Shown piece by piece: positions 3,556 through 12,229 of a stretch of 64,000 nt of DNA (the stretch's first letter is position 1; every line of letters starts with the position of its first letter). A program made the position numbers and the translations under genes. Source of the stretch: Escherichia coli. Lineage in GTDB: Bacteria > Pseudomonadota > Gammaproteobacteria > Enterobacterales > Enterobacteriaceae. The stretch lies in NCBI RefSeq assembly GCF_022846255.1, contig NZ_AP025682.1; one strand, written 5' to 3'. The notes under the pieces are model-generated. The model was not told the origin of the DNA. It did no database searches and saw only the letters and a program-made list of their open reading frames with translations.

Positions 3556-3864
3556 AGGGTTGTCCTCGTCGGGGTAATTATTATTGGTGAAAAGATGTTC
3601 GCGAAAAAACTATAGACAATTCGTTATGTAACGGATTGCGTTACATCACACTTCAAAAAAGTAAATAAAACGTTAATCACAAGTTTGTAATCGCTTTCAT
3701 CTCACTATGAAAAATGCGGCTACGGTTATGGATTTTCCTGCTCTGTATACCGTCTTAAAACTGGCGAAAAAGGAAAATGAAGACGAAAACAAGCGAAGAC
3801 ATTCGGCGCGAGTTGGCTATAATACTCGGCACTTGTTTGCCACATATTTTTAAAGGAAACAGAC

Positions 3865-4395
3865 ATGAGCTTACTCAACGTCCCTGCGGGTAAAGATCTG
3901 CCGGAAGACATCTACGTTGTTATTGAGATCCCGGCTAACGCAGATCCGATCAAATACGAAATCGACAAAGAGAGCGGCGCACTGTTCGTTGACCGCTTCA
4001 TGTCCACCGCGATGTTCTATCCGTGCAACTACGGTTACATCAACCACACTCTGTCTCTGGACGGTGACCCGGTTGACGTACTGGTCCCGACTCCGTACCC
4101 GCTGCAGCCGGGTTCTGTGATCCGCTGCCGTCCGGTTGGCGTACTGAAAATGACCGACGAAGCCGGTGAAGATGCGAAACTGATTGCTGTTCCGCACACC
4201 AAGCTGAGCAAAGAATACGATCACATTAAAGACGTTAACGATCTGCCAGAGCTGCTGAAAGCGCAAATCGCTCACTTCTTCGAGCACTACAAAGACCTCG
4301 AAAAAGGCAAGTGGGTTAAAGTTGAAGGTTGGGAAAACGCAGAAGCCGCTAAAGCTGAAATCGTTGCTTCCTTCGAGCGCGCCAAGAATAAATAA
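3865..4395 (+). CDS. ppa: Inorganic pyrophosphatase
   Basis: 176-aa ORF, translation matches E. coli Ppa ([38 protein letters not shown]...). Confidence 0.97.
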
Positions 4396-4749
4396 GTTCT
4401 TCTGGCGTAATAACCCTGAACGCCGGGCTTCGGTTAGTAGGGGTTTTTTTATGCCCGCAATTTATAAACTCTCTACTCCACTATTATTATTTTCAGCAGT
4501 TTAAAGGCTTGAACGGTAAGAACAAGCTAAACTCGACCACCATTTTGCTGTTCATAGCCACTTGCTGGAAGTTAGCCGGCCTCACTCATACTCACCGTTC
4601 AAAGCGTGTCCCCGTTTTACCCCTGTACATTTGTTAACGCCAGCAGAGTTTTACATGCGTTAACGGATATGGAAAGCGGCTCGGAAGGAAAAGCAAAAGG
4701 CGAGGAAGTTACAAAAAAGAATACGCGTCGTCTCGCAAAAAAATAACGC

Positions 4750-4761
4750 CACCCGCAGGTG
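4750..4761. repeat. IS4 target-site duplication (left copy), cacccgcaggtg
   Basis: 12-bp direct repeat identical to 6188-6199, immediately flanking the IS4 terminal inverted repeats. Confidence 0.85.
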
Positions 4762-6187
4762 TAATGCCGATCAGTTAAGGATCAGTTGACCGATCCAGTG
4801 GCTGTGTAAGAATCCGGAAACGCTCACTTGTTTCCGGATTTTTTTATGCACATTGGACAGGCTCTTGATCTGGTATCCCGTTACGATTCTCTGCGTAACC
4901 CACTGACTTCTCTGGGGGATTACCTCGACCCCGAACTCATCTCTCGTTGCCTTGCCGAATCAGGTACTGTAACGCTACGCAAGCGCCGTCTTCCCCTCGA
5001 AATGATGGTCTGGTGTATTGTTGGCATGGCGCTTGAGCGTAAAGAACCTCTTCACCAGATTGTGAATCGCCTGGACATCATGCTGCCGGGCAATCGCCCC
5101 TTCGTTGCCCCCAGTGCCGTTATTCAGGCCCGCCAGCGCCTGGGAAGTGAGGCTGTCCGCCGCGTGTTCACGAAAACAGCGCAGCTCTGGCATAACGCCA
5201 CGCCGCATCCGCACTGGTGCGGCCTGACCCTGCTGGCCATCGATGGTGTGTTCTGGCGCACACCGGATACACCAGAGAACGATGCAGCCTTCCCCCGCCA
5301 GACACATGCCGGGAACCCGGCGCTCTACCCGCAGGTCAAAATGGTCTGCCAGATGGAACTGACCAGCCATCTGCTGACGGCTGCAGCCTTCGGCACGATG
5401 AAGAACAGCGAAAATGAGCTTGCTGAGCAACTTATAGAACAAACCGGCGATAACACTCTGACGTTAATGGATAAAGGTTATTACTCACTGGGACTGTTAA
5501 ATGCCTGGAGCCTGGCGGGAGAACACCGCCACTGGATGATACCTCTCAGAAAGGGAGCGCAATATGAAGAGATCAGAAAACTGGGTAAAGGCGATCATCT
5601 GGTGAAGCTGAAAACCAGCCCGCAGGCACGAAAAAAGTGGCCGGGACTGGGAAATGAAGTGACAGCCCGCCTGCTGACCGTGACGCGCAAAGGAAAAGTC
5701 TGCCATCTGCTGACGTCGATGACGGACGCCATGCGCTTCCCCGGAGGAGAAATGGCGGATCTGTACAGTCATCGCTGGGAAATCGAACTGGGATACAGGG
5801 AGATAAAACAGACGATGCAACTGAGCAGGCTGACGCTGAGAAGTAAAAAACCGGAGCTTGTGGAGCAAGAGCTGTGGGGTGTCTTACTGGCTTATAATCT
5901 GGTGAGATATCAGATGATTAAAATGGCGGAACATCTGAAAGGTTACTGGCCGAATCAACTGAGTTTCTCAGAATCATGTGGAATGGTGATGAGAATGCTG
6001 ATGACATTGCAGGGCGCTTCACCGGGACGTATACCGGAGCTGATGCGCGATCTTGCAAGTATGGGACAACTTGTGAAATTACCGACAAGAAGGGAAAGGG
6101 CCTTCCCGAGAGTGGTAAAGGAGAGGCCCTGGAAATACCCCACAGCCCCGAAAAAGAGCCAGTCAGTTGCTTAACTGACTGGCATTA
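4762..6187 (+). mobile_element. IS4 insertion sequence, complete (1426 bp) with 18-bp imperfect terminal inverted repeats
   Basis: Left end taatgccgatcagttaag, right end cttaactgactggcatta (reverse complement taatgccagtcagttaag); length 1426 bp equals canonical IS4; encloses the IS4 transposase ORF; flanked by 12-bp direct repeats. Confidence 0.92.
4846..6174 (+). CDS. insG: IS4 transposase (InsG), DDE family
   Basis: Translation from ATG at 4846 ([28 protein letters not shown]...) matches IS4 transposase; ORF track start at 4828 is a TTG extension. Confidence 0.92.
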
Positions 6188-6199
6188 CACCCGCAGGTG
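6188..6199. repeat. IS4 target-site duplication (right copy), cacccgcaggtg
   Basis: Identical to 4750-4761. Confidence 0.85.
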
Positions 6200-6213
6200 G
6201 CGTGCTTTTATTA

Positions 6214-6555
6214 TTACTTATCCCTGTCTAACCAGTCGCCGCTTTCAATTAGCTTTAATCCATCGACGGGTCGTTGATAAACGTACATCCATGCACTCCC
6301 GTACGGCGTCTGAATCAACTGGCGCGCGTATTCACCGCCCCTGGTGCGCAAGGCATCAAGTTCGGCCAGCGTGGCGTTGTCAATACGATAAACTTCACCG
6401 TGTACTGTTCCGTTCCCCGGAACTGCGCCTGGATAGTGGCCCAGGCTATACAACTGGTAGTTATCGATACTGAAATCGCCCAGTAACTGGGCATTGGTCA
6501 TCCAGTGACTGTTGCCTTGTTTGTGGCGTAAACTGCCGTAGACAAATATTCGCAT
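6214..6555 (-). CDS. ytfP: Gamma-glutamylcyclotransferase-family protein YtfP
   Basis: 113-aa ORF (MRIFVYGSLRHKQGNSHWM...) with YGSL motif typical of GGCT/AIG2 fold; downstream of tamB. Confidence 0.93.
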   Translation of the reverse strand: MRIFVYGSLRHKQGNSHWMTNAQLLGDFSIDNYQLYSLGHYPGAVPGNGTVHGEVYRIDNATLAELDALRTRGGEYARQLIQTPYGSAWMYVYQRPVDGLKLIESGDWLDRDK

Positions 6556-6557
6556 TG

Positions 6558-12229
<5,672 letters not shown>

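Follow-up and report, generated by a model that had tools for sequence, protein, structure and literature searches.

In the 64-kb stretch of DNA analyzed here (hereafter, the window), an insertion sequence lies in the spacer between two convergent genes, ppa and ytfP, and disrupts neither of them. The ppa gene (3865–4395, plus strand) encodes an inorganic pyrophosphatase of 176 aa. The opposite strand carries ytfP (6214–6555, minus strand; stop codon at 6214–6216), which encodes a 113-aa protein of the gamma-glutamylcyclotransferase family and is the last gene of tamA-tamB-ytfP; tamB (6558–10337, minus strand) is located 2 nt before it. These assignments were based on Pfam and on how these genes are annotated in matching E. 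coli genomes. The earlier note on this DNA had placed the element in a 3' region shared by ppa and ytfP. The convergent spacer was confirmed, but the region is not a generic one: folding revealed that ppa has its own terminator-like hairpin with a U7 tract (approximately 4412–4451, plus strand), about 300 bp upstream of the element. A scan of positions 3600–6800 against Rfam detected no sRNA in the ppa–ytfP spacer. A match to the S15 leader inside ppa scored 17.9 bits, below the gathering score of 39.5, and was rejected as due to chance.

The element occupies positions 4762–6187 on the plus strand and is 1426 bp long, according to a re-reading of the sequence, a script check, and comparison with other copies. 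Its left inverted repeat, IRL (TAATGCCGATCAGTTAAG; 4762–4779, plus strand), and right inverted repeat, IRR (TAATGCCAGTCAGTTAAG; 6170–6187, minus strand, given in the inward reading, i.e., as the reverse complement), were delimited by script and agree throughout except at positions 8 and 9 (16 of 18 matching). The repeat search showed the 12-mer CACCCGCAGGTG directly at both boundaries, at 4750–4761 on the left and 6188–6199 on the right, and the two copies of this target duplication were identical at 12 of 12 positions. The 12-mer occurs just twice on both strands of the window, and the chance of such a match at both exact boundaries is about 4^-12. It is also palindromic in itself (CACC-CGCA-GGTG). 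A target duplication of about one helical turn (11–13 bp) is characteristic of IS4, and those at other IS4 copies measured 11, 12, or 13 bp; for the IS4 family as a whole, a duplication of approximately 10 bp is considered a hallmark (PMC2266710). The earlier note had described a 1426-bp IS4 with 18-bp inverted repeats differing at two positions and 12-bp direct duplications, situated 26 bp past the ytfP stop codon. All of these features were confirmed, the 26 nt corresponding to 6188–6213; the note had named non-identity of the flanking 12-mers as one observation that would speak against it, and re-inspection revealed no difference between them.

Compared with the IS4 copy of K-12 (NC_000913.3, 4502090–4503515; insG, b4278), the element was identical at 1421 of 1426 nt (99.65%; 5 nt differ), and the transposase shared 440 of 442 aa with InsG, the changes being G304A and R326L. 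By the ISfinder convention, copies with more than 95% nucleotide and more than 98% amino acid identity belong to the same IS, and both values exceed these thresholds. The K-12 copy is likewise 1426 bp long, with unchanged IRL and IRR strings, a 12-bp duplication, and a 442-aa transposase; however, it occupies another site, yjgZ–nanX, with a non-palindromic AAA-N20-TTT sequence. The gene for the InsG-like transposase of the window (4846–6174, plus strand; 442 aa) was delineated by ORF, Pfam, and motif checks. The frame is also open from a TTG at 4828, giving 448 aa, a longer form that RefSeq adopts for some copies. Two Pfam models, Nterm_IS4 (E = 3e-33) and DDE_Tnp_1 (E = 9e-32), were both covered over their full length. 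The catalytic residues D133, D209, and E314 are present, with spacers of 75 and 104 residues, and so is the second motif, Y307-R310-E314-K321, so that both the DDE and YREK signatures are intact. The single-ORF transposase and both spacings agree with the patterns D(60–110)D(100–150)E and Y(2)R(3)E(6)K described for the IS4 family (PMC2266710). The element is IS4 itself, an ordinary intact copy of an already known E. coli insertion sequence; the intact 442-aa transposase reported previously and the attribution to IS4 proper, rather than to another family member, were upheld.

IS4 is widespread in the species: of 5426 complete E. coli genomes, 2686 contained matches, at a total of 5493 places; the median per genome was one, and the highest number was 32. 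The window copy was identical at every nucleotide to that of strain 675SK2 at mug/rpoD and differed by 1 nt from that at tynA/feaB in strain CFSAN061762, and more 100% matches were obtained in further genomes. The occurrence of identical copies at another locus, in another strain, and in further genomes suggests that the variant is in circulation and probably mobile and active; with its intact ORF and ends, the window copy may itself be competent for transposition.

The uninterrupted site was reconstructed by removing IS4 and one copy of the duplication; this exact pre-insertion sequence was not observed in any genome searched. The reconstructed site reads ...GCAAAAAAATA-ACGCCACC-CGCA-GGTGGCGT-GCTTTTATTATTA, after which comes the stop codon of ytfP; the layout of the target is AAAAAAA-TA-ACGCCACC-CGCA-GGTGGCGT-GC-TTTT. 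On the ytfP strand, it was predicted to fold into an 8-bp GC-rich stem (ACGCCACC/GGUGGCGU) with a tetraloop, followed by UAUUUUUUU, and the hairpin begins 16 nt past the stop codon. Thus, the reconstructed site has the GC-rich stem-loop and immediate U-tract just 3' of a gene that define an intrinsic terminator. A homologous hairpin follows ytfP in K-12 as well. The duplicated 12 bp correspond to the top four stem pairs and the loop. In the window, the hairpin is split: the ppa-side half (4737–4749) retains the A7 run (4737–4743) and the outer stem TAACGC, and the ytfP-side half (6200–6213) consists of GCGTGC and TTTTATTA. Of the 8-bp stem, each flank retains no more than 4 bp, and the terminator no longer appeared when the interrupted 3' region of ytfP was folded. 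The target of IS4 is the apex of the predicted intrinsic terminator hairpin of ytfP, a point that the earlier note did not contain, and its suggestion that termination of ytfP could be affected gains support from this position. With the A-run on the opposite side, the native hairpin is potentially a bidirectional terminator. Taken together, a canonical and intact IS4 has very probably transposed into the apex of a hairpin that, judging from its predicted fold, would serve as the intrinsic terminator at the end of tamA-tamB-ytfP.

The distribution of alleles at this locus was examined in the 5426 complete E. coli genomes. An uninterrupted ppa–ytfP arrangement, counted where a single contiguous match spanned 80% or more of the reconstructed site, was present in 5191 of them, and the exact configuration of the window was found in no other complete genome among those searched. 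This distribution fits a lineage-specific event that is probably recent; together with the perfect duplications, it also supports the previous description of a simple, probably recent insertion. None of the 5426 genomes matched the reconstructed site at 100%, and exact CACCCGCAGGTG followed without interruption by GCGTGC was detected neither in them nor in the GTDB species representatives. The earlier note had proposed a search of reference genomes for the empty site; the uninterrupted arrangement was thereby found in abundance, but a single exact 12-mer without esiB was not. The nearest empty site, that of strain C25, also lacks esiB and has one mismatch in the loop, CGAA, with A for the C of the window. 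The sequence expected for the uninterrupted allele is AACGCCACCCG(C/A)AGGTGGCGTGC.

A total of 186 genomes, 153 of which matched at 99% identity or higher, had the CGCA form of the loop, always beside esiB and as the ppa-side member of a hairpin pair, esiB being bracketed by two near-identical hairpin copies. A longer single-hairpin CGCA pattern gave no match in the GTDB species representatives. A 21-mer CGCA pattern matched 53 non-Escherichia species, most of them beta- or gammaproteobacteria, and was set aside as uninformative for the history of the locus. The best matches to the left flank of the window, A37, A3, A26, and Q5 (99.6%), all carry esiB; for the window, the best matches were A37, Q5, LF82, and H22 (99.1–99.6%). 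The CGCA/esiB strains Nissle 1917, LF82, and ATCC 25922 belong to phylogroup B2.

Three complete genomes, those of GF130, Q5, and N32, also have IS4 in the homologous 12-bp apex. In GF130, esiB lies between IS4 and ytfP, the element has the orientation seen in the window, and the same 12-mer is duplicated; the IS4 differs from that of the window by 14 nt. Strain Q5 has the same arrangement with esiB, the same duplicated 12-mer, and an IS4 identical to that of GF130, inserted in the opposite orientation. N32 is K-12-like, with chpSB on the ppa side; its IS4, 1 nt different from that of the window, lies in the opposite orientation in a hairpin with the loop CGAA. Over the 897 bp from ppa to the hairpin, C25 differs from the window at 3 positions, A37 at 6, and GF130 at 7, and neither C25 nor A37 has IS4 at the hairpin. 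Because the insertion is missing from strains that resemble the window no less closely than GF130 does, the hits are, on this comparison, independent IS4 events at one apex, at least four in all including that of the window. The hits in the three other strains involve two IS4 variants and three locus configurations. Insertion in both orientations is consistent with a symmetrical target. Descent of the window and GF130 insertions from one ancestral event was considered and found unlikely, given the absence of IS4 in C25 and A37 and the 14 nt between the variants; in addition, each variant occurs at other loci, and the GF130 variant is found in Q5 in the opposite orientation. The loop base that distinguishes CGCA from CGAA was also rejected as a determinant of targeting, because N32 carries IS4 in the CGAA form.

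The proximity of the window to the esiB-bearing CGCA strains suggests that its lineage may once have carried esiB and that the history of the locus may include loss of this gene. An alternative to a plain insertion at a single hairpin is, therefore, that IS4 hit the ppa-proximal hairpin of an esiB-bearing ancestor and that esiB was later deleted by recombination between the hairpin remnant on the right of IS4 and the second copy beside ytfP, which would leave an insertion combined with a deletion scar. The occurrence of the CGCA loop only beside esiB in those 186 genomes, and never in a single-hairpin site without esiB, speaks for this scenario, as do the esiB-bearing top matches of the left flank and the two near-identical hairpins around esiB; GF130 and Q5 provide examples of IS4 hitting the ppa-side hairpin. 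However, retention of the C in the right duplication would require a crossover within approximately 7 bp (AGGTGGC). Moreover, C25, which lacks esiB, is the closest strain over the ppa–hairpin interval (3 differences per 897 bp, compared with 6–7 for A37 and GF130), and the window IS4 is 14 nt away from the GF130/Q5 variant. Three orders of events fit the data equally well: loss of esiB and then IS4 insertion, IS4 insertion and then loss of esiB by recombination between the hairpins, and a point mutation in the loop followed by IS4 insertion. The first and third of these are as good as the order that the alternative requires, and we regard that alternative as unlikely, at about one chance in a handful. 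Whichever order applies, IS4 itself arrived by simple insertion and produced a perfect duplication. A deletion of esiB mediated by IS4 from an adjacent position was rejected, as the right duplication has C, the base of the ppa-side hairpin, where the ytfP-side hairpin has A.

Import of the IS4-bearing segment by homologous recombination from a strain already carrying the insertion appeared improbable. The region is a recombination mosaic, in which the left flank is closest to A37 and Q5 (99.6%), tamAB to unrelated strains (99.2%), and positions 39–64 kb to H22 and A37 (99.5%), which speaks for such an import; yet no donor with this configuration was found in the 5426 complete genomes or in 80 metagenome loci, and the identity of the feature would be unchanged even if the import had occurred. 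Finally, the chance that the element is a different member of the IS4 family, or that its flanking repeats are coincidental, is negligible: nothing was found in favor of either, and 99.65% identity to K-12 IS4 over 1426 bp and duplications matching at 12 of 12 positions at the exact boundaries of the inverted repeats, with the 12-mer nowhere else in 64 kb, stand against them. Transposition of IS4 into the predicted terminator hairpin of ytfP is the preferred reading.

Megablast matches of other IS4 copies ran 20–27 bp into the flanks of the window, and the contexts of these copies were inspected. The IS4 copies at tynA/feaB, fumA/fumC, and mug/rpoD are likewise located in the apex of an A-run/GC hairpin/T-run, 20–72 bp from the neighboring stop codons, and are flanked by 12- or 13-bp duplications. 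The target preference was then surveyed using 46 distinct left flanks of IS4, taken from fetched loci and from metagenome contigs that were scanned for the left end of IS4, with random positions of the window as background; an A-run was defined as four or more A and a palindromic apex as one with arms of four or more. The profile of the 46 sites peaked at positions -21 to -18, where A accounted for 65–89% of sites, was C-rich at -15 to -9, and had G in 76% of sites at both -4 and -1. An A-run at about -21 to -18 was present at 32 of 46 sites (70%), compared with 6.6% of background positions, and a palindromic apex at 24 of 46 (52%, compared with 7.8%). Both features occurred together at 17 of 46 sites against 0.5% of the background (binomial p = 5e-28).

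The classical target consensus of IS4 is AAA-N20-TTT. The window site has the same symmetrical arms, A7-N6-[12 bp]-N6-T4, corresponding to AAA-N24-TTT, and its A-run lies 1–2 nt farther from the duplication than the consensus position. Specificity of the target arms has been noted (PMC2266710). The hairpin is favored by IS4 but is not obligatory, because the K-12 copy occupies an AAA-N20-TTT site without a palindrome. These results show that the IS4 transposase prefers symmetrical A-run/GC-rich palindrome/T-run targets resembling bidirectional terminators, and the ytfP site was very probably chosen for this reason; a staggered cut would then have duplicated the central 12 bp, i.e., a 4-bp stem top, the loop, and the second 4-bp stem top. 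The survey offers a compact description of target choice in IS4, which sharpens the old consensus and overturns nothing.

Both ends of IS4 contain inward-facing, terminator-like hairpins. The one at the left end (4808–4845, plus strand), detected by inverted-repeat search and folding, has a stem of approximately 15 bp (AAGAAUCCGGAAAC/GUUUCCGGAUUUUU) followed by U7 and abuts the transposase ATG. The segment 4800–4850 folded at -22 kcal/mol (z = -5.25), and none of 200 shuffled sequences folded as well. A candidate sigma-70-like promoter of the transposase gene (4786–4813, plus strand), identified by consensus match only, consists of TTGACC, a 16-nt spacer, TG, and AAGAAT, with a -10 element that overlaps the 5' arm of the left-end hairpin. 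For the right end (6148–6183, minus strand), repeat search and folding detected the hairpin GCCAGUCAGUU-AAGC-AACUGACUGGC, followed by UCUUUUUC, with 11 perfect pairs and a loop of 4 (-18.7 kcal/mol, z = -3.96).

The predicted consequences of the insertion for transcription follow from this arrangement of hairpins. The native ytfP terminator would be destroyed in both directions. After the insertion, the next strong structure beyond ytfP in the predicted folds is the right-end hairpin of IS4 with its UCUUUUUC, which would stop most read-through from ytfP about 60–66 nt past the stop codon. Transcription arriving from the ppa side would be stopped by the left-end hairpin just ahead of the transposase ATG: transcripts initiated outside the element would form the whole hairpin and terminate, and those from the candidate promoter of the element itself would lack its 5' arm. 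One bidirectional host terminator would thus be exchanged for two inward-facing ones of IS4, and, on the predicted structures, the IS4 end hairpins probably take over the terminator role at ytfP. For ytfP and ppa, the net consequence is probably small and the insertion nearly neutral, because the inward hairpins with U-tracts would stand in for the native terminator; such a replacement would explain why these insertions are tolerated. The ytfP transcript is predicted to extend about 30 nt farther at its 3' end and to stop inside IS4, which is relevant for transcript mapping of tamAB-ytfP in this strain.

A recent survey reported that terminator-like hairpins are over-represented just outside and inside the ends of insertion sequences, which was read as a means of limiting transposase expression (bioRxiv 10.1101/2025.07.22.666184). 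In its accessible text, the analysis is statistical and at the family level, the strongest named signal is that of IS200/IS605, and IS4 is mentioned once. The left-end hairpin of the window IS4, with U7 at the ATG, matches the pattern described there. The splitting of a host terminator by IS4 and its substitution by terminators of the element are proposed here and go beyond what that text presents.

A broader reading, which we put forward tentatively and rate at somewhat below even odds, is that IS4 is a terminator-seeking insertion sequence, which recognizes the symmetrical A-run/GC-hairpin/T-run architecture of bidirectional terminators, inserts at the apex in either orientation, and substitutes its own pair of inward-facing terminators; the ytfP terminator, hit independently at least four times, would then be a recurrent hot spot. 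Within this reading, it is possibly the structure rather than the sequence that is recognized. If the reading is correct, the terminator swap would keep the insertions nearly neutral and, at the same time, insulate the transposase gene. Our literature search found no paper stating that IS4 targets terminators. The closest parallels differ in the nature of the target. Like IS4 here, IS186, a member of the IS4 family, inserts in both orientations within a palindromic flank around a duplicated core (PMC5009759); however, its target is GGGG(N6/7)CCCC, with G4/C4 arms, a core of 6–7 bp, and another duplication length, and is not terminator-like. IS1397, ISKpn1, ISRm22 (also of the IS4 family), and other REP-targeting elements similarly insert in extragenic palindromes (PMC1525189), but their targets are repeated REP elements, whereas those of IS4 here are unique A-run/hairpin/T-run terminators.

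For the window itself, the insertion is one more copy of a textbook IS in an intergenic spacer; what the analysis adds is the identification of the target as the apex of the predicted ytfP terminator, the recurrence of hits at this hot spot, and a quantification of the target choice of IS4. The ppa–ytfP spacer was also found to be polymorphic, with at least three states (plain, chpSB, and esiB), and, because IS4 insertion recurs at its hairpin, it would be prone to homoplasy if used as a strain-typing marker.

Comparison of the ppa-ytfP spacer (window 4396-4761 and 6188-6213) with loci L001, L005, L006, L088, L142, and L143 demonstrated that it is a polymorphic locus with multiple states in E. 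coli. The plain spacer state was observed in strain C25 and in the window, while in K-12 and N32 the chpS-chpB toxin-antitoxin pair was located inside the spacer. In 186 genomes, including those of Nissle 1917 and LF82, the spacer contained esiB, the product of which is a secretory-IgA-binding protein. On either side of the esiB gene lay a copy of the ytfP terminator hairpin, the two being almost identical and having the loops CGCA and CGAA. The presence of such copies on both sides of the gene suggests that esiB is gained or lost via recombination at the hairpin.

The 21-mer AACGCCACCCGCAGGTGGCGT, representing the single-hairpin form with the CGCA loop, had exact matches in 53 non-Escherichia species representatives (loci L089-L141), chiefly Burkholderiales and other beta- and gammaproteobacteria. 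Its occurrence outside Escherichia probably results from convergence on a generic, GC-rich terminator hairpin.

Two further features were considered on the ppa side of the element. A 25-codon ORF, MESGSEGKAKGEEVTKKNTRRLAKK, was found on the plus strand at 4673-4750, with its TAA stop codon adjoining the terminator hairpin. In K-12, this stop codon is lost through a 1-nt difference in the A-run, and the corresponding position has no annotation; the ORF probably does not represent a gene. Rfam gave a weak hit to the ribosomal S15 leader at 4330-4386 (+), within the 3' end of ppa; it scored 17.9 bits, where the gathering score is 39.5 (E = 0.54), and was taken as a chance match.

For every large part of the window, identity to the nearest complete E. 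coli genome in the collection was no higher than ~99.1-99.6%. The closest strains changed along the window by segment, from A37 and Q5 to 13P477T and others, then to LF82 and finally to H22. Because the highest identity was only at this level and the best-matching strain varied between segments, the source of the window is an unsampled lineage of mosaic history, close to LF82, Nissle 1917, and similar strains.

Among the other IS4 copies, full-length elements without a duplication common to the left and right flanks were detected in four metagenome contigs (L031, L051, L055, and L056); in L051, the right flank came from a different terminator-like site. These copies fit either rearrangement by IS4-IS4 recombination or assembly chimeras. 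In addition, many E. coli genomes carried a relative annotated as "IS4 family transposase" (search hits H148-H158), in which only 81% of the element was matched, in two pieces spanning ~1145 bp with ~98% identity. This relative looks like a widespread IS4 derivative with an internal deletion.
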